From Synergistaceae bacterium (lineage in GTDB: Bacteria > Synergistota > Synergistia > Synergistales > Synergistaceae), in the NCBI GenBank assembly GCA_963682045.1, contig OY821326.1, forward strand, positions 1,293,211-1,357,210: 64,000 nucleotides of DNA, read 5' to 3'. Positions 2,165 through 53,094 of the stretch are shown here, piece by piece; position 1 is the stretch's first letter; the number at the start of each line of letters is the position of its first letter. The translations under genes were made by a program, and so were the position numbers. The notes below the pieces were generated by a model. It had not been told where the DNA came from, did no database searches, and saw only the letters and a list, made by a program, of their open reading frames with translations.

Positions 2165-3610
2165 TTATTCCTCCACTGTCTCGATATTGTTCATTTCCAT
2201 GTCCTTGGTGCCGGTCATGACGCATCCCTTTTCCTTGGCGTAGCTGATGTAGTCGATTATCTCGGCTGTCAGCCTCTCACCGGGCGCAAGTATCGGGATG
2301 CCCGGTGGGTATGCCATTACAAGTTCCGCACTGATCATTCCAAGGCTTTCCTTTATGGGAACACTTTTTTTCTTTGCGTGGAAAGCCTGCTGTGGAGTCA
2401 TAGCCACCTGCGGATCAATATATTCGTGGTCAAGCATGTTCATAGGGTCTCGGCTGAAGCGGCGCTGTATCTCTGCCAGAGCTCCAAGGAGCCTCTCAAT
2501 TTCAAGTTCCCTGTCACCCACTGAAATAATGGCCAGGACGTTGCCGATGTCCCCAAATTCTATCTGTATACCGAACTCATCCCTTAGGATGTCATAAACT
2601 TCTATTCCTGCAAGACCCATCGCACGGGTATGTATGCTCAATTTGGTCCTGTCAAAATCAAAAACTGTCTCTCCGTTGATTATCTCTTTTCCAAAAGCCC
2701 TCAGGCCTGGGATCCTGTTTACCTCTTCCCTCGCATATTCGCTTAGCGAACATACCCTTTTGAATATTTCTTTACCGTGGAGAAAGAGGTTTTTTCTTGC
2801 AATATCCAGCGATGCCATGAGCAGATAGCTTCCGCTCGTTGTCTGTGTCAGGTTTATTATCTGCCTTACAGCCTCAGCTTCGACTTTGGGGCCTAGCAGT
2901 AGCATAGAGCTCTGCGTAAGGGAGCCTCCTGTTTTGTGTATGCTGACTGCTGACATATCCGCTCCCGCGTCCATTGCAGAAAGAGGGAGGTCCTCGCCAA
3001 AGTAGAGGTGTGTTCCGTGGGCCTCATCGATAAGGGCCAGCATGCCTGCCTCATGGGCTATTTGGACTATCTCCCGCAGATCACTGCAGACCCCGTAATA
3101 GGTGGGGTTGTTAACAAATATAGCTTTTGCGTCCGGATGTTCCGATACTGCCTTTTTTACATCGCTAACAGACATTCCGAGGCTTATCCCAAGTTCAGGT
3201 TCGATCCCGGGGTTCACATAAACAGGTGCAGCTCCGCAGATCACCATTGCGTTTATTACGCTTTTATGAACATTTCTCGGCATGATGATCTTATCGTTCT
3301 GTCTGCAGCATGAAAAGATCATATTTTGCACTGCTGCAGTCGTACCGTTTGTTATAAGGAATGCGTGGCTCGCCCTGAAAGCCTCTGCTGCCAGGATCTC
3401 CGCCTCCCTGATGACTCCGGTCGGGTGGGTCAGGTTGTCAAGGGGCTTGCTTGAGTTGAGATCCATCGAGATGCACTTCTGACCAAAAGCATCAACGAGG
3501 GCCTTATGTCCTTTGCCCTGTTTGTGGCCCGGAACATCAAAGGAGACTATCCTGTTTTTAATGTATTCCTGCAGAGCATCATAGATCGGAGTCTCATTCT
3601 GTCTATTCAT
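2165..3610 (-). CDS. speA: PLP-dependent arginine decarboxylase (Orn/Lys/Arg decarboxylase family, Bacillus SpeA type)
   Basis: 481-aa ORF with the PLP-lysine motif SIHKTGGS. It lies between speD and speE. Substrate is inferred from the downstream agmatinase. Confidence 0.75.
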   Translation of the reverse strand: MNRQNETPIYDALQEYIKNRIVSFDVPGHKQGKGHKALVDAFGQKCISMDLNSSKPLDNLTHPTGVIREAEILAAEAFRASHAFLITNGTTAAVQNMIFSCCRQNDKIIMPRNVHKSVINAMVICGAAPVYVNPGIEPELGISLGMSVSDVKKAVSEHPDAKAIFVNNPTYYGVCSDLREIVQIAHEAGMLALIDEAHGTHLYFGEDLPLSAMDAGADMSAVSIHKTGGSLTQSSMLLLGPKVEAEAVRQIINLTQTTSGSYLLMASLDIARKNLFLHGKEIFKRVCSLSEYAREEVNRIPGLRAFGKEIINGETVFDFDRTKLSIHTRAMGLAGIEVYDILRDEFGIQIEFGDIGNVLAIISVGDRELEIERLLGALAEIQRRFSRDPMNMLDHEYIDPQVAMTPQQAFHAKKKSVPIKESLGMISAELVMAYPPGIPILAPGERLTAEIIDYISYAKEKGCVMTGTKDMEMNNIETVEE

Positions 3611-4409
3611 AGATATTCATTCCCGTGTAGATTTCTATCATTTCCCTGCGAAGCCTGTTGGTTATCTCAAGCCTCTCTTTGGGGGTAAATTCGAGCACGT
3701 CATTGTTGAAGAGATAATTCTGGAGGTGCAGTTCCTTTATCAGCATCTTAGTGTGAAAAATATTGGCCTGATAAACGTTAATGTCCTGGGCGTCATATTC
3801 CTGCAGGGTCCTGGAGTCTATGAAATCCTGTATCGAGGCTATCTTGTGGTCGATATAACATTTACGGCCGTCCATCTCACGGGTGAAGCCCCGGACACGG
3901 TAGTCTATCGCAATGATATCCGAATCAAAGCTGCCGATCAGATAATCAAGGGCATTCAGCGGAGAGATCTTGCCGCATGTCGATACATCTATGTCCACAC
4001 GAAAAGTCGATATAGCCTGGTTTGGATGGAACTCCGGGTAGGTATGGACCGTAAGGTGGCTCTTGTCAAGGTGGCCGCATACAGTCTCGCGTTTAGAGAG
4101 TATCTCAAACCCACAGTTGCACGAAGCGTCAAGAGTCTCCGGTGGCATGGGCATTTCGGAGATCAGAATGGTGACACTGGCTCCCTGCGGGTCATAGTTC
4201 TGCTTGGAAATGTTCAGAACATGGGCGCCGATCATGTCAGTCACATCGCAAAGTATGTTGGTGAGACGCTCTGCGTTGTACTGTTCATCTATATATGATA
4301 CATACTCGTTCTTTTCTCTTTCGGTCTTTGCGTAGCACACATCGTAAATATTGAAGCTAAGCGTTTTTGTAAGGTTGTTAAAGCCATACAGTTTTATTTT
4401 CTCGGCCAT
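3603..4409 (-). CDS. speD: S-adenosylmethionine decarboxylase proenzyme (E. coli SpeD type)
   Basis: Strong collinear similarity to E. coli SpeD (KLYGFNNLTKTLSFNIYDVCYAKT, LDKSHLTVHTYPE, IDYRVRGF). I prefer the ATG at 4409 (AAAGGAG RBS) over the longer ORF start at 4451. Confidence 0.9.
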   Translation of the reverse strand: MAEKIKLYGFNNLTKTLSFNIYDVCYAKTEREKNEYVSYIDEQYNAERLTNILCDVTDMIGAHVLNISKQNYDPQGASVTILISEMPMPPETLDASCNCGFEILSKRETVCGHLDKSHLTVHTYPEFHPNQAISTFRVDIDVSTCGKISPLNALDYLIGSFDSDIIAIDYRVRGFTREMDGRKCYIDHKIASIQDFIDSRTLQEYDAQDINVYQANIFHTKMLIKELHLQNYLFNNDVLEFTPKERLEITNRLRREMIEIYTGMNIYE

Positions 4410-5009
4410 CTCAGGCTCCTTTCTGAAAATGGCCTCCGCATGAGTGTTCATCCACTCGGGGTGCTTGCTTTACACCCCTTAAAATAAAAAACAACCACCC
4501 GCCTTCCTCAGGGGAAAAGACAGGATAGTTGTACTTGATAGATGATCCCTACTTTAATTTGACTGATGTATTATACAAATATTGGTAGTTTATTTGAGCC
4601 TATACAGTAATATATACTTTTACTGCTCATGTCGACCATTCACAAGTACTCTAAACTTATGAACACAATTTCGCGGAGGTCTCCGCAACAAAATTTGAGC
4701 TCTGGCTCATCAACACGATATCACAATCGCTAGTTCGGCATTTGACCCGGCTGTCCGTATGGCCATTCGTATAACTGTAATACAGTTAGGTCAGATTTAA
4801 AGAATGCTTGACTTGGTTTGTGATGATAGACTTAAATACCCTACCCTCCTTATGACCGCTATCACTAGTCGTTTTTTACCATATAAAGCAAAATGTTGCA
4901 AGTAATTTTATGACGATTTGATACAATTGCGTAAATATGAGATATTCTTCACAGAGAACGTTCCGAACAAAAACATCATCAATAGATAAATCAGAAAGGG
5001 GTCTGTCCA

Positions 5010-48988: not shown

Positions 48989-49675
48989 TTATAATGATAT
49001 GCGTTTACGTTCGAGCCTGGCATCGTTGGTCCCCGGCGGATATTTGAAAGGGATCACATCTCCTGTTTCCATGTGTATCAGGTGCATTTTTTCAAGTCCG
49101 TTCAGAAAAAACCTTCCGCATTCATCTATAGAAGTAGGATGTTCCATACTGTGTCCAAAGAGGTTGTACTCTCCGGCATCGTTCATTACGTCCTCATAAG
49201 TATGACCGGCCCTGAAACGAAAACTTCCTATGTAAAAACGACCGGGCCTGCTCCATACCTGGATCGAAGAGTTCTCTGTCATTTCAAGCAAACTCGGAAG
49301 ATGGTCATGGTTTCCGGTAAGAAGGATGGCCCCACATGTTTCGTCAGTGAGCAGGTTCAAAAGCACACGAAGTTTTTTTCTGTAAAGATCTATCATGCCC
49401 GGCCTGGTCTCAAGCTTTATGTCATCTACGAGATCCCCTGTATGTACGATCCATGCCGGACGAAGACGCTGTATGGCTCTCCGCAGGTAGGGAAACATGG
49501 TCGAAGGGGTGTCAGAAATGTGAAGGATCATGTCCCTGCCGTCCAAAGGAGGAGGATTGAGGCCCGCCCGCACTGCAATATTATCTATTCTGCTCCTGAT
49601 AGGACAGTTTCTTATCTCCTCAAGCGTTGGCTTGGGCAGGTTGCTCGGCAAGTGCAGAGTCGTCATGTTCTTCAC
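48989..49675 (-). CDS. calcineurin-like metallophosphoesterase
   Basis: 228 aa with motifs HTGDLVDD, LTGNHDH and FGHS. The first motif reads HISDTPS, with no His where DxH is expected. Confidence 0.7.
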   Translation of the reverse strand: MKNMTTLHLPSNLPKPTLEEIRNCPIRSRIDNIAVRAGLNPPPLDGRDMILHISDTPSTMFPYLRRAIQRLRPAWIVHTGDLVDDIKLETRPGMIDLYRKKLRVLLNLLTDETCGAILLTGNHDHLPSLLEMTENSSIQVWSRPGRFYIGSFRFRAGHTYEDVMNDAGEYNLFGHSMEHPTSIDECGRFFLNGLEKMHLIHMETGDVIPFKYPPGTNDARLERKRISL

Positions 49676-49846
49676 CTCTTAAATTAAAAACCGGATTTAC
49701 ATCTGAACTTCTACTCAAAATCAAACCTTTTCCAATGATATTATAGCAGGAGGATGCATAAAAACCATTTCAAACTGCATGAGCACTTATGAACAAAATA
49801 CTTGTTTTTTTACCAGCCAACATGTAGGATAGCAAAAGTAATCGAT

Positions 49847-49932
49847 TGTTCTCCGAGCCTGTCCGCCTAAAGATATTATCCACGGGGGCCGGGCCGTTAG
49901 GGTTTCGCTGGAAACGGTGGAGCCTCCCTTTG
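49847..49932 (+). promoter_or_regulatory. Moco-class riboswitch-like aptamer (copy 1)
   Basis: P1 is gttctcc/ggagaac. It carries a 5' CCGAGCC and a 3' GGAGCCUCCC-UUU-GGAAAGGAG block, as I recall for the Moco RNA motif. It lies upstream of tungstate transporter genes. Confidence 0.6.
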
Positions 49933-49949
49933 GAAAGGAGAACGGCTGT

Positions 49950-49990
49950 CTGTATTTTATTCGGCCGTCTTCTCCAGTGAGGACGGCCGA
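49950..49990 (+). terminator. intrinsic terminator of riboswitch copy 1
   Basis: cggccgtc / gacggccg stem followed by ATTTCTGTTTTT. The 5' arm can alternatively pair with the P1 3' strand. Confidence 0.65.
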
Positions 49991-50033
49991 TTTCTGTTTT
50001 TAAGGGATATAATACAAAATCCCAACCCTCCCC

Positions 50034-50060
50034 TGCGAGATCGCCCCCAACGATCTCGCA
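50034..50060 (+). terminator. second terminator-like hairpin in the tup leader
   Basis: tgcgagatcg cccccaa cgatctcgca, a perfect 10-bp stem followed by TCTTCATTATTT. Confidence 0.4.
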
Positions 50061-50077
50061 TCTTCATTATTTATAAC

Positions 50078-50092
50078 TGCAATCAAGTTGCA
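50078..50092. promoter_or_regulatory. TGCAAT-CAA-GTTGCA near-palindrome in the tup leader
   Basis: Matches 11 of 12 positions of the TGCAAC-N3-GTTGCA motif. It lies between the two riboswitch-like elements. Confidence 0.4.
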
Positions 50093-50189
50093 AATAATAG
50101 TAAGTTTTCTTTTTTTCTCTTAAATTCACGACAAAAACAATTAAATAGTGTAGAATTACGTCTATGCCATATATTTTACTTTTATGGTT

Positions 50190-50313
50190 TTTGTCTCCTG
50201 ATCAAATCAAGAGACGACCCTGAATCTGTTTTTCCTGTAGCGCCTGCTATGGAAAACAGACGTTAGGGCGGATCTGGAAACGGATCCGTCTCCCATTGTG
50301 GAAAGGGGGCAAA
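50190..50313 (+). promoter_or_regulatory. Moco/Tuco-class riboswitch-like aptamer (copy 2, diverged)
   Basis: The 3' half aligns with copy 1 (cgttaggg...ctggaaacgg...gtctccc...gtggaaaggggg). P1 is tttgtctcc/gggggcaaa with two GU pairs. The 5' half differs and lacks CCGAGCC. It lies about 100 nt upstream of tupA. Confidence 0.45.
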
Positions 50314-50409
50314 TATTTCGCCACGTGCGATATCAATATCAATGCCCTCCTATTCTTCAAGGTCTCAAGGTTTTTAGCACCAATATATCTTTTAAGGAGG
50401 AGTATCCCC

Positions 50410-51261
50410 ATGAAAAGCAACAAGCGCTTCTTACTTTTCATCACCATCATTGCAGTATGCATGCTCACTTTGGGCTCATTTGCATACGCCAAACCGCCAG
50501 TTCTCAGAATGGCAACAACTACCAGCACCGACAATACAGGCCTTCTCGATTATATGGCTCCTATCCTGCTGAAGGATACAGGGATCGAGATCCAGTGGGT
50601 ATCCGTTGGAACAGGAAAGGCGCTTGAATACGGGCGTAACGGAGATGTTGACGTAGTCCTTACCCATGATCCGGCAGCCGAAGACAAGTTTATGGCAGAC
50701 GGCGCAGGTGTTAACCGACGTAAGGTCATGTACAACGACTTCGTACTGATCGGCCCCGCAAACGACCCGGCAGGTATAAAGGGCAAACCCATAACCCAGG
50801 CGATTGCGACAATAGCCGCGAAGGGACAGCCTCTCGTGAGCCGCGCGGACAAATCCGGCACACATTCAGCAGAACTTAAGCTTCTCAAAGCGGCCGGAGT
50901 CAAAAATTTCGACAAGGCGACCTGGTATGTACAGACAGGACAGGGAATGCTCAATACGATCAACATCGCTGATGAACGCAAGGGATACGCACTTGCTGAC
51001 AGAGGCACATTCATTAAATATGACGCAAATCTCAAAGGCAAACCGGGGCTCGTTATAGTAGTAGAGGGAGACAAACAGCTCCTAAACATGTACAGTGTTA
51101 TGGCTGTCAACCCTATCAAACACCCGCATGCAAAGTACGACCTTGCGATCAAGTACATCGACTGGATCACCTCTTCAAAGGTCCAGAAGGATATCGCAAA
51201 CTTCAAGCTTGAAGGCAAGCAGCTCTTCTTCCCCAACGCCGAAATCAGATCCGGACACTAG
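50410..51261 (+). CDS. tupA: tungstate ABC transporter substrate-binding protein
   Basis: 283 aa from ATG 50410 (AAGGAGG RBS) with a signal peptide and a TupA-type motif (RMATTTSTDNTGLLD). The longer track ORF extends into the leader RNA. Confidence 0.8.
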   Translation: MKSNKRFLLFITIIAVCMLTLGSFAYAKPPVLRMATTTSTDNTGLLDYMAPILLKDTGIEIQWVSVGTGKALEYGRNGDVDVVLTHDPAAEDKFMADGAGVNRRKVMYNDFVLIGPANDPAGIKGKPITQAIATIAAKGQPLVSRADKSGTHSAELKLLKAAGVKNFDKATWYVQTGQGMLNTINIADERKGYALADRGTFIKYDANLKGKPGLVIVVEGDKQLLNMYSVMAVNPIKHPHAKYDLAIKYIDWITSSKVQKDIANFKLEGKQLFFPNAEIRSGH

Positions 51262-51332
51262 GCTATCTTATATTATTCGACTGGACCGGGTCCCGCCGTC
51301 AGGACCCGGCCTGATTTTAAGGAGGGTACCGG

Positions 51333-52031
51333 GTGGATTTCATTATTCAAGGTTTTTTTCAATCCATAAGGCTTATTGCATCAATGGACGAGGAAACTCT
51401 GAATATAGTGCTTACGACCTTAAGGCTGACCGGCCTTTCCATGCTCTTTATCCTTGGACTCGGTCTGCCCCTGGGCTTTGCGCTGGGTTATTTCGATTTC
51501 CCAGGCAAACACCTTCTAAGAACCATATCTGATACCCTGCTTTCTCTTCCTACCGTTGTAGTAGGGCTGCTTGTTTATGCCTTCATATCGAGAAGAGGTC
51601 CCCTGGGTGATTTTCAGCTTCTTTTCACCATTCGCGGAATGGCGATAGGGCAGATCACACTAGGGCTGCCGATCGTTATTTCTTATACGGCCACTGCTAT
51701 AGAAGGCCTTGACAACAGACTGAAACTTACTCTGCAGACACTCGGGGCTTCAGGCGCAAAACTTGCGGTAACAAGCCTTTGGGAAGGGCGTTTTCAGGTC
51801 CTTGTCGCCGCGCTAACCTCCTACGGAAGAATCATAGGAGAGGTAGGTTCAGCAATGATGCTGGGCGGAAACATTAAATGGCACACAAGAACGATAACAA
51901 CTGCAATCACACTTGAAACAGGCAAGGGAGATTTCGCACTGGGAATTGCCCTGGGTATCGTTCTGCTCTCAATTTCATTAGTATTGAACATCTCCCTCTC
52001 CTTCCTTAGGAGAAGAGTGGGAAACAGCTAG
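51333..52031 (+). CDS. tupB: tungstate ABC transporter permease
   Basis: 232 aa, GTG start behind AAGGAGGG, ABC permease fold. Confidence 0.8.
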   Translation: MDFIIQGFFQSIRLIASMDEETLNIVLTTLRLTGLSMLFILGLGLPLGFALGYFDFPGKHLLRTISDTLLSLPTVVVGLLVYAFISRRGPLGDFQLLFTIRGMAIGQITLGLPIVISYTATAIEGLDNRLKLTLQTLGASGAKLAVTSLWEGRFQVLVAALTSYGRIIGEVGSAMMLGGNIKWHTRTITTAITLETGKGDFALGIALGIVLLSISLVLNISLSFLRRRVGNS

Positions 52032-52065
52032 GAAAAAATATTTAACATACTACGGAGGAAACTCA

Positions 52066-53094
52066 TTGGACCCGAAGATCATTTATGAGATCAAAAACCT
52101 GACTCACAGCTACGGGAAAGGACCTCAGACCATCCATATCGACTATCTGAAAATATGTGAGGGCAGCGTAACCGGAATCGTAGGCCCCAACGGAAGTGGA
52201 AAATCAACTCTTCTGAGGGTACTGGCTTTCCTTGAACCATACACAGGCGGTTCACTTTTTTTCGGCGGTCTCGATCCTTCCGGTAGTGAGGTCGACAAAA
52301 GAAAAAACGTAACATATCTCCTTCAAAACTCCTATCTCCTGAAAAGGTCCGTTTTTGAAAACATAGCATATGGGCTGCGGCTGAGAAATGAGACTGAGGA
52401 CCTCAAGGAAGGGGTTTTTGATTCTCTTGAAAGAGTAGGGCTATCCCCATCAAAATTTGCCCATAGGCCTTGGTACAGACTCTCCGGCGGTGAAGTCCAG
52501 CGTGTGGCCCTGGCCGCAAGGCTGGCGCTCCATCCCAAAGTACTTATCCTTGACGAACCTACCGCAAACGTTGATGAATCAAGCGCTCTGCTAGTTAAGG
52601 AGGCTGCTGTGTCGGCATGGAAAGAATGGGGAACAACCGTAATAGTAGCCACTCACGACATTCCCTGGCTTACCGAGGTATCTACGGACATAATAAGTCT
52701 TTTCCGTGGAAAAATAGTCGGACACGGGACCGAAAACCTGATACACGGACCATGGATCAGGGAGAACGGAAGCGTGGTCAAAACACTAACCGACGGACAG
52801 AAGATCCATGCACTCATAAATGAAGCGGCGGAACTTCACGCAGCAGTGCTAAACCCTTCGGATATCGAGCTGATAACGGATAGCGAAATAGTCTCTTTAT
52901 ATGCGAACAGGCTCAGGGGAACGGTCACAAGCATGGCGCTTGAGAGAGCAACCGGATCAGCCCTTATTTCAGTTCAGACAGGCGATATTATCCTGAAGTC
53001 AAGGATGCCGGTCGAAAAAATAAAAGAAGTACAGATCTCCCCTGCATCAGAAGTCACTCTGTCCTTTTCACCGGAAGACGTCCGCTGGATTTAG
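52066..53094 (+). CDS. tupC: tungstate ABC transporter ATP-binding protein
   Basis: 342 aa with Walker A GPNGSGKST, signature LSGGEVQR and Walker B LILDEPTANVD, plus a C-terminal extra domain. Confidence 0.8.
   Translation: MDPKIIYEIKNLTHSYGKGPQTIHIDYLKICEGSVTGIVGPNGSGKSTLLRVLAFLEPYTGGSLFFGGLDPSGSEVDKRKNVTYLLQNSYLLKRSVFENIAYGLRLRNETEDLKEGVFDSLERVGLSPSKFAHRPWYRLSGGEVQRVALAARLALHPKVLILDEPTANVDESSALLVKEAAVSAWKEWGTTVIVATHDIPWLTEVSTDIISLFRGKIVGHGTENLIHGPWIRENGSVVKTLTDGQKIHALINEAAELHAAVLNPSDIELITDSEIVSLYANRLRGTVTSMALERATGSALISVQTGDIILKSRMPVEKIKEVQISPASEVTLSFSPEDVRWI

Follow-up and report, generated by a model that had tools for sequence, protein, structure and literature searches.

Tandem Moco (molybdenum cofactor) RNAs were reported by Regulski et al. 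(2008) in Syntrophomonas wolfei and Geobacter metallireducens (PMC2408646). The S. wolfei array is a triplet of members lacking helix P3, of which the first and second are each followed by a terminator, and stands before an operon with molybdate/tungstate transport genes (PMC2408646). Sherlock et al. (2022) listed 13 doublets and 2 triplets of Moco riboswitches as well as tandem riboswitches for the tungsten cofactor (Wco, also Tuco), and assigned the Moco and Wco tandems to the 'pseudo-cooperative' and not to the 'bi-mechanism' category (PMC9481103). Here we describe a doublet of aptamers of this family (RF01055) in a Synergistaceae bacterium, within a stretch of 64,000 nucleotides (nt) that is called the window below and whose positions serve as coordinates. 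The two aptamers lie in series upstream of tupA, the first gene of a tungstate transporter-like operon. They probably constitute a bi-mechanism tandem for a single ligand, equipped with an internal promoter, that would exert negative feedback on tungstate uptake. An earlier note on the same DNA had proposed the second, diverged aptamer, but the novelty that it suggested for tandem arrangements of this class is contradicted by the publications of 2008 (PMC2408646) and 2022 (PMC9481103).

The S. wolfei triplet resembles the window locus in that RF01055 copies without P3 stand in series, the upstream copies are followed by terminators, and a long gap precedes the open reading frame (ORF). What sets the window apart from the described Moco and Wco tandems is a doublet in Synergistota placed directly before tupABC. 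Its aptamers stem from two anciently diverged lineages and are separated by a promoter-like element and a hairpin, both conserved; the second copy has an explicit sequestor of the Shine-Dalgarno (SD) sequence. The tandem of S-adenosylmethionine riboswitches SAM-II/SAM-V shares the bi-mechanism layout, a terminator first and ribosome access second for one and the same ligand, but it joins two structural classes of aptamer, and its description mentions no internal promoter (PMC9481103). The tupABC genes of Eubacterium limosum also follow a P3-less RF01055 aptamer with a sequestor of the ribosome-binding site and an anti-sequestor overlapping an aptamer helix, and RNA-seq supports translational regulation there (PMC11725836). 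Unlike the window locus, that system has a single riboswitch and is found in Bacillota (PMC11725836). In the adenine riboswitch/T-box(Tyr) tandem of Clostridium botulinum, promoters lie upstream of and between the two elements, as we propose for the window, and only transcripts from the first promoter see both; however, its elements respond to different ligands and form a logic gate, whereas the window aptamers are of the same class (PMC9481103).

Every component of the locus has, in sum, a published precedent. New is the instance: the occurrence in Synergistota, the diverged lineages, the combination of terminator, internal promoter and SD sequestor, and an unexplained hairpin. Synergistota is not one of the five bacterial groups listed for the motif in the abstract of Regulski et al. 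(2008; PMC2408646). The tandem criteria of Sherlock et al. (2022) are two complete riboswitches with a platform each, one downstream ORF, no ORF between the riboswitches and a gap of at most about 300 nt (PMC9481103). In the window, two complete riboswitches with platforms of their own precede one operon, separated by 249 nt. No plus-strand ORF of 50 or more amino acids lies between the aptamers; the only plus-strand ORFs overlapping the gap (28 and 44 amino acids, with TTG/GTG starts) overlap aptamer 1 and its terminator.

The aptamers were searched for by cmscan of the whole window against Rfam 15, where the gathering score of RF01055 is 36 bits. Aptamer 1 (49839-49956, plus strand) scores 75.2 bits (E 2.4e-16). 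Aptamer 2 (50206-50324, plus strand) scores lower, with 56.3 bits (E 8e-11), yet stands 20 bits over the threshold and cannot be regarded as noise. Each match spans model positions 1-135 in full, and the P3 positions of the model are deleted in both alignments. TupA relatives were taken from one genome per species and their loci were then scanned with Rfam. The same doublet is found in 20 complete Synergistaceae loci with 75-98% identical TupA, including Synergistes, Cloacibacillus and Candidatus Caccocola; the closest relatives of the window locus are uncultured Synergistaceae, 97-98% identical in TupA. With a covarying match to the family and a conserved doublet in at least 20 loci, the second aptamer of the earlier note is borne out.

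Aptamer 1 is a canonical Moco/Tuco aptamer without P3. Its helices are P1 (49849-49854 with 49937-49942), P2 (49857-49894) and P4 (49900-49925). In the covariation sets, which comprise about 23 related Synergistaceae loci, 83.5% of the copy-1 cells are paired and compensatory changes mark 21 of 37 pairs; the covariation score is reached by none of 500 shuffles. A terminator scan detects the strong intrinsic terminator T1 (49961-50000, plus strand), a 12-bp stem (49961-49990) followed by UUUCUGUUUU. T1 is conserved with covariation: in 20 loci its folding energy ranges from -14 to -24 kcal/mol, and 5-7 of the first 8 bases of the tail are U. The competing antiterminator (49937-49972, plus strand) is formed when the 3' strand of helix P1 and the adjoining linker (GGAGAACGGCUG) pair with the 5' arm of T1 (CGGCCGUCUUCUCC). 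The fold of the nascent RNA 49937-49976 has -18.3 kcal/mol, and the equivalent duplex has -14 to -17 kcal/mol in most orthologues. The complementarity of linker and helix-P1 3' strand to the 5' arm of T1 involves the linker motif ACGGCU and GGCCGU, both invariant in an alignment of 16 doublet loci. T1 is the expression platform of aptamer 1, and the two together would make a textbook transcriptional OFF switch.

In aptamer 2, helix P1 joins GACCCU (50216-50221) to GGGGGC (50305-50310), a pairing that is conserved and covaries. It is followed by the joining region J1/2 GAA (50222-50224), P2 (50225-50260), J2/4 CGUUA (50261-50265), which alone links P2 to P4, and P4 (50266-50291) with its GAAA loop at 50277-50280. 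A GNRA tetraloop on P4, usually GAAA, is a defining feature of the family (PMC2408646), and GGAAAC is invariant at this loop in 22 of the 23 copy-2 sequences. Across the 23 orthologues 87.2% of the cells are paired and compensatory changes occur in 21 of 35 pairs, a result matched by 0 of 500 shuffles; P2 contributes 9 of 10 pairs and P4 6 of 11, while in the inner part of P1 pairing reaches 82.6% and 3 pairs are compensatory. An outer extension of P1 is without support, being 49% paired across orthologues.

The likeness of 50261-50313 to the 3' half of copy 1, by which the earlier note had recognised this aptamer, is accounted for by J2/4, P4, P5 and the 3' strand of helix P1 in the family model. 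That note had also described the 5' half as different. It is indeed devoid of CCGAGCC and has CCCUGAAUC instead, but the ctgtttttcc/ggaaaacag hairpin named there is nothing other than the family P2 stem (50225-50260). Nor does the helix P1 proposed there, 50190-50198 with 50305-50313, hold up. This duplex (-12.2 kcal/mol) can form in the window and its closest relatives and is absent from distant orthologues; it has no counterpart in loci L011, L022, L023, L047 and L018, and its formation would be at the expense of a conserved leader hairpin. The latter (50193-50215), which includes the presumed 5' strand of that duplex and is present in the minimum free energy (MFE) fold of the whole leader, is the second of two plus-strand leader hairpins situated between aptamer 2 and the predicted start of promoter P2, described below; the first occupies 50166-50188. 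When the loci are folded one by one, nearly all orthologues have leader hairpins here, although the sequences of the stems differ.

Copy 2 differs from the family in ways that its orthologues share. Its 5' element CCCUGAAUC, in place of the canonical CUCCGAGCC, is nearly invariant among them; here P1 ends with U.G, J1/2 is G-A-A and not G-A, and P2 opens with U-A and not G-C. The junction consensus of the family runs CCGAGCC ... AGGG ... CCUCCC ... GGAAAGGAG, of which copy 2 keeps UAGGG, CUCCC and GGAAAGGGG. The conserved traits of the copy-2 lineage are J1/2 GAA, the junction GUCUCCC where others have GCCUCCC, and a longer P5 loop. The absence of P3 is the one reported feature that discriminates Moco from Tuco RNAs, the P3-less ones being associated with tungsten metabolism (PMC2408646). 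Since neither copy has P3, both are placed in the Tuco/Wco class, and a tungsten-type pterin cofactor is the likely ligand of both.

The expression platform of copy 2 appears to be translational (50342-50403, plus strand). It consists of an anti-SD, AUGCCCUCCU (50342-50351), and the SD region, AAGGAGGAG (about 50393-50403). The SD itself, GGAGG at 50396-50400, lies within a conserved AAGGAGG, and the anti-SD core CCCUCC (50345-50350) is conserved too, so that the pairing partners given in the earlier note, tgccctcc at 50343-50350 and this GGAGG, were rightly positioned. The anti-SD has a choice between the helix-P1 3' strand region 50300-50310 (ON) and the SD region (OFF). If the bound state is mimicked by withholding the 3' strand of helix P1 from the fold, the SD is paired with the anti-SD in the MFE structure of 15 of 18 loci. 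In the mimic of the free state, where that strand is available, it takes the anti-SD in the window clade. The unconstrained MFE fold of the leader (50163-50420) is the ON arrangement, with -83.6 kcal/mol and z = -4.5. In L187, a metagenome contig read on its reverse strand, the SD is AGAGGGGGA and not AAGGAGGGG, and the anti-SD is UUCCCCCUG and not CCCUCCU. The two cores, GAGGGGG and CCCCCU, have thus changed jointly, which supports the sequestor helix. Judged from these folds, copy 2 would be an SD-sequestering translational OFF switch, and the division of labour proposed in the earlier note, one transcriptional and one translational platform, is recovered with T1 after copy 1 and the SD sequestor after copy 2.

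A separate feature of this leader is an invariant CCC directly 5' of the tupA AUG (region 50406-50412), present in the window and its orthologues. With the 3' end of the SD it forms a small hairpin, GGGG-N3-5-CCCC, in most orthologues. The window, with GGAGGAG in its SD region, has a weaker version of this hairpin.

Each aptamer is preceded by a promoter-like element. Promoter-like element P1 (49802-49830, plus strand) has a -35 TTGTTT (49802-49807), a 17-nt spacer and a -10 TAGGAT (49825-49830), with a predicted start at about 49837, just 5' of aptamer 1. CTTG (49801-49804) and T.TA..AT (49823-49830) are invariant in the 16 aligned loci; the element follows the pattern CTTGT, 17 nt, TGTAnnAT (49801-49830). 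Promoter-like element P2, found by scanning (50128-50156, plus strand), has a -35 ACGACA (50128-50133), again a 17-nt spacer, and a -10 TAGAAT (50151-50156), with a predicted start at about 50163. This -10, already singled out in the earlier note, falls within an 11-nt block, TAGTGTAnAAT (50146-50156), that is invariant in all 16 aligned doublet loci. The same block lies directly 5' of the single copy-2-type aptamers of L018 and L023. It seems reasonable to treat P1 and P2 as two candidate promoters.

The block was also considered as a canonical extended -10, a description rejected on the ground that its TG lies one position too close. Of the 14 occurrences of TGTAnRAT in the window, 7 are in or next to intergenic DNA, which makes up about 15% of the sequence; the 7 include 53145, called coding by the script but located upstream of the real glmS start. 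Example sites are 14668, 49823, 50149, 53145 (upstream of a glmS-like gene) and 59484. By its placement, TGTAnRAT is probably the -10 region of this organism with an adjacent TG. Two palindromes accompany the promoter-like elements. AACAA-AATAC-TTGTT (49792-49806, plus strand) overlaps the -35 of promoter P1, and its surrounding block, TGAACAAAATACTTGT, is kept in most doublet loci; a DNA-binding regulator of promoter P1 might use this palindrome as its operator. TGCAA-TCAAG-TTGCA (50078-50092, plus strand) has its centre about 78 nt before the predicted promoter-P2 start. It is present in the window clade, L010, L012, L014, L016 and L187 and absent from Cloacibacillus/Caccocola-type loci, and may be a transcription-factor site for promoter P2.

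Between T1 and promoter P2 lies a conserved element (50016-50075, plus strand) composed of a C-rich stretch (ACAAAAUCCCAACCCUCCCC), a hairpin that we call hairpin 2, and a U-rich tail. The 10-bp stem of hairpin 2 pairs 50034-50043 with 50051-50060 and encloses the loop CCCCCAA (50044-50050); the loop motif CCCCA(A/G) is invariant in 21 loci. In the stem, 92.4% of the cells are paired and 9 of the 10 pairs show compensatory changes, giving a covariation score of 0.80 versus at most 0.23 for slid controls. There are 12 G.U cells against 4 A.C cells, an excess that points to an RNA made from the plus strand. With a permissive cut-off (E up to 10), an Rfam scan of 49680-50420 returned the two RF01055 matches and noise, and no match for hairpin 2. 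A regex-and-fold search of the window and 80 loci for hairpins with a CCCCAAC loop found them at the doublet position only, other hits being weak or coding. No conserved complement to the loop was seen in the tupA leader when alignments were inspected by eye; the SD and the 3' strand of helix P1 offer a GGGG run only. The element could be a leaky second terminator, the 3' module of a small RNA (sRNA) or a protein-binding site.

For the history of the region it is convenient to speak of module A, that is, promoter P1, aptamer 1 and the mutually exclusive antiterminator and T1, and of module B, that is, promoter P2, the two leader hairpins, aptamer 2 and the anti-SD/SD pair. The two are immediately adjacent and in the same orientation in at least 20 genomes. 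The distance between the aptamers is 195-252 nt (249 nt in the window), except for 544 nt in L016, and that from aptamer 2 to the ATG is 62-97 nt, or 81-97 nt in every locus except L013. A metagenome scan used the query GGAAAGGAGAMCGGCTG. Among the matches listed, 115 of 120 stretches lacked an aptamer context and were due to chance. The 5 real ones comprised three further doublets, one stretch truncated by the end of its contig, and a high-GC singlet ahead of a tupA-like gene. In the window, copy 1 shares 47% identity with copy 2; over all loci, identity averages 49% between the two groups and 69-71% within them, and in none of 47 cases does a nearest neighbour belong to the other group. This separate clustering, together with covariation and conservation, indicates that the doublet is old and that both members are under selection. 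A recent within-genome duplication giving rise to copy 2 is rejected, as every copy-2 sequence groups with others of its kind and none with those of copy 1.

Either module can stand alone. In L018 and L023 the sole riboswitch is of the copy-2 type, with no copy 1; in L025, L026 and L057 a copy-1-type aptamer with its terminator is found ahead of tupA without module B. L016, a metagenome-assembled genome of the Synergistaceae, carries an unrelated insert of about 330 nt (L016 positions 2380-2710) between hairpin 2 and promoter P2. T1 and hairpin 2 stay beside copy 1 in this locus, and the TGCAA palindrome and promoter P2 stay beside copy 2. These single-module loci and conserved features indicate that the region is built from two self-sufficient modules.

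The interpretation that we favour runs as follows. Module A would be a transcription-termination OFF switch and module B a translation-initiation OFF switch, both responding to the same cofactor. When the cofactor is scarce, the 3' strand of helix P1 in aptamer 1 would pair with the 5' arm of T1 and polymerase would read on, while the corresponding strand of aptamer 2 would hold the CCCUCC anti-SD and leave the tupA SD free. When it is abundant, both P1 helices would close, T1 would form and the anti-SD would pair with the SD. Transcripts from promoter P1 would face both checkpoints, those from promoter P2 the second only. The earlier note had wired the two copies in series on one transcript. 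The copies are in series, but with an internal promoter and a terminator-like hairpin between them the transcript may be shared partly or not at all.

Several observations weigh against the same-ligand tandem. Hairpin 2 resembles a terminator (-15 to -24 kcal/mol), with a U-rich tail containing 3-6 U in its first 8 bases. It could stop promoter-P1 transcripts before promoter P2, in which case the two switches would never share one RNA; how many of these transcripts reach aptamer 2 depends on the leakiness of hairpin 2. In several distant orthologues the SD is still paired in the MFE fold of the free-state mimic. Promoter activity is put forward on the strength of conservation. Helix P1 of copy 2 contains an A.G mismatch in the window clade, where more distant orthologues have U-A. 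The family receptor for the tetraloop, situated in the P2 bulge, is of the type CCUAAG...UAUGG, and a few members are without a receptor (PMC2408646). In copy 2 of the window clade it reads CCUGUAG...CUAUGG, without an AA platform and with a canonical 3' half, although distant copy-2 orthologues carry the canonical form (e.g. CCUAAGG...CUAUGG in L014). The mismatch and the receptor may weaken tertiary docking or the affinity of aptamer 2. Finally, PMC2408646 and PMC11725836 contain no binding assay for a P3-less RNA.

If hairpin 2 does terminate efficiently, the locus would consist of two separate units. Module A would yield a short noncoding RNA (ncRNA) that never extends into tupA; its end would lie at T1 under high cofactor and at hairpin 2 (about 50065-50075) under low cofactor, and module B alone would control tupABC. 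We consider this main rival rather unlikely. In its favour, a terminator-like hairpin 2 followed by U-rich sequence is found in every locus, and the strong covariation of its stem, the invariant loop and the conserved ACACAAAAUC(C) stretch suggest a function beyond spacing. Moreover, hairpin 2 remains with module A across the 330-nt separation in L016, while promoter P2 is invariant and module B occurs by itself in L018 and L023. Against this, the runs of U that follow hairpin 2 are broken up and inferior to that of T1 (3-6 versus 5-7 U of 8), and the two modules remain adjacent and co-oriented in at least 20 genomes. In L025, L026 and L057 the module-A-type aptamer and terminator stand directly before tupA, and there they are a bona fide tupA regulator. 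The 3' segment could be a cofactor-regulated RNA with a target of its own, acting as a base-pairing sRNA or a protein decoy, but inspection of the alignments revealed no conserved target for the loop in the tupA leader. The riboswitch-controlled EutX/Rli55 RNAs offer an analogy for an RNA acting as a decoy. The more specific proposition that module A is a trans-acting ncRNA under tungsten-cofactor control, and not a tupA leader, is improbable in our estimate. Were it true, read-through of T1 at low cofactor would add the C-rich strand and hairpin 2 to the module A RNA, and this extension would act in trans, either through base pairing as a C-rich sRNA or by serving an RNA-binding protein as a decoy, reprogramming, for instance, cofactor-sparing genes.

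The same-ligand tandem must also be weighed against readings that assign copy 2 another role. The diverged copy 2 might possibly sense a different pterin species, making the doublet a two-input gate on tungstate uptake (Moco versus Tuco, or cofactor versus precursor). The ancient divergence of copy 2 (47-49% identity, none of 47 neighbours across groups) and its conserved differences in the core speak for this; yet P3, the feature on which the Moco and Tuco gate envisaged in the earlier note would turn, is absent from both copies, and there is no positive evidence for two ligands. Copy 2 keeps the other highly conserved junction nucleotides and its score lies 20 bits over the threshold, its type occurs alone before tupA in L018 and L023, as expected for a tungsten-cofactor sensor, and tandem copies are also expected to diverge simply with age, or under selection that keeps the two aptamers from mispairing. 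We therefore hold two ligands to be quite improbable. Still further down is the notion that copy 2 is a decaying duplicate without sensing, tupA translation being constitutive or controlled only by the leader hairpins. The A.G mismatch in helix P1 and the non-canonical receptor of the window clade, as well as a score below that of copy 1, could be read as signs of decay. Covariation contradicts this disfavoured view, with compensatory changes in 21 of 35 pairs and 87% of cells paired over 23 orthologues, and so do the invariant junction nucleotides and GAAA loop, the conserved anti-SD, and the position of copy 2 as the only riboswitch in L018 and L023. We regard decay as very improbable indeed.

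The genes downstream of the doublet, all on the plus strand, are tupA (50410-51261), tupB (51333-52031) and tupC (52066-53094), whose best NCBIfam matches are TupA (E 7.9e-96), TupB (E 3.2e-81) and TupC (E 1.2e-47). All three matches are under the equivalog cut-offs, so that 'tupABC-like tungstate transporter' is the safe name. The Pfam domains of the operon proteins are PBP_like_2, BPD_transp_1 and ABC_tran, and on these matches the operon (50410-53094) may safely be called a tungstate ABC (ATP-binding cassette) transporter-like system. The gene upstream of the riboswitch region (48989-49675) lies on the opposite strand. Elsewhere in the window, at 4735-4793 on the minus strand, there is a match to RF02440 (SpF59 / ldcC RNA) with 54.1 bits against a gathering score of 37.2. 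A minus-strand gene (3603-4451) follows about 280 nt downstream, with TGTATAAT between match and gene.

The Synergistota doublet is a well-conserved and unusually clean addition to the short list of tandem riboswitches for molybdenum and tungsten cofactors. It leaves knowledge of the riboswitch class unchanged; only hairpin 2, with its covarying stem and invariant loop, could lead somewhere new. The locus offers a natural system for asking whether the stacking of two switches for one ligand sharpens the response, and how the choice of promoter sets the number of checkpoints that a transcript must pass. For the organisms themselves, it would place tungstate uptake under negative feedback in a phylum that is common in anaerobic digesters and guts.

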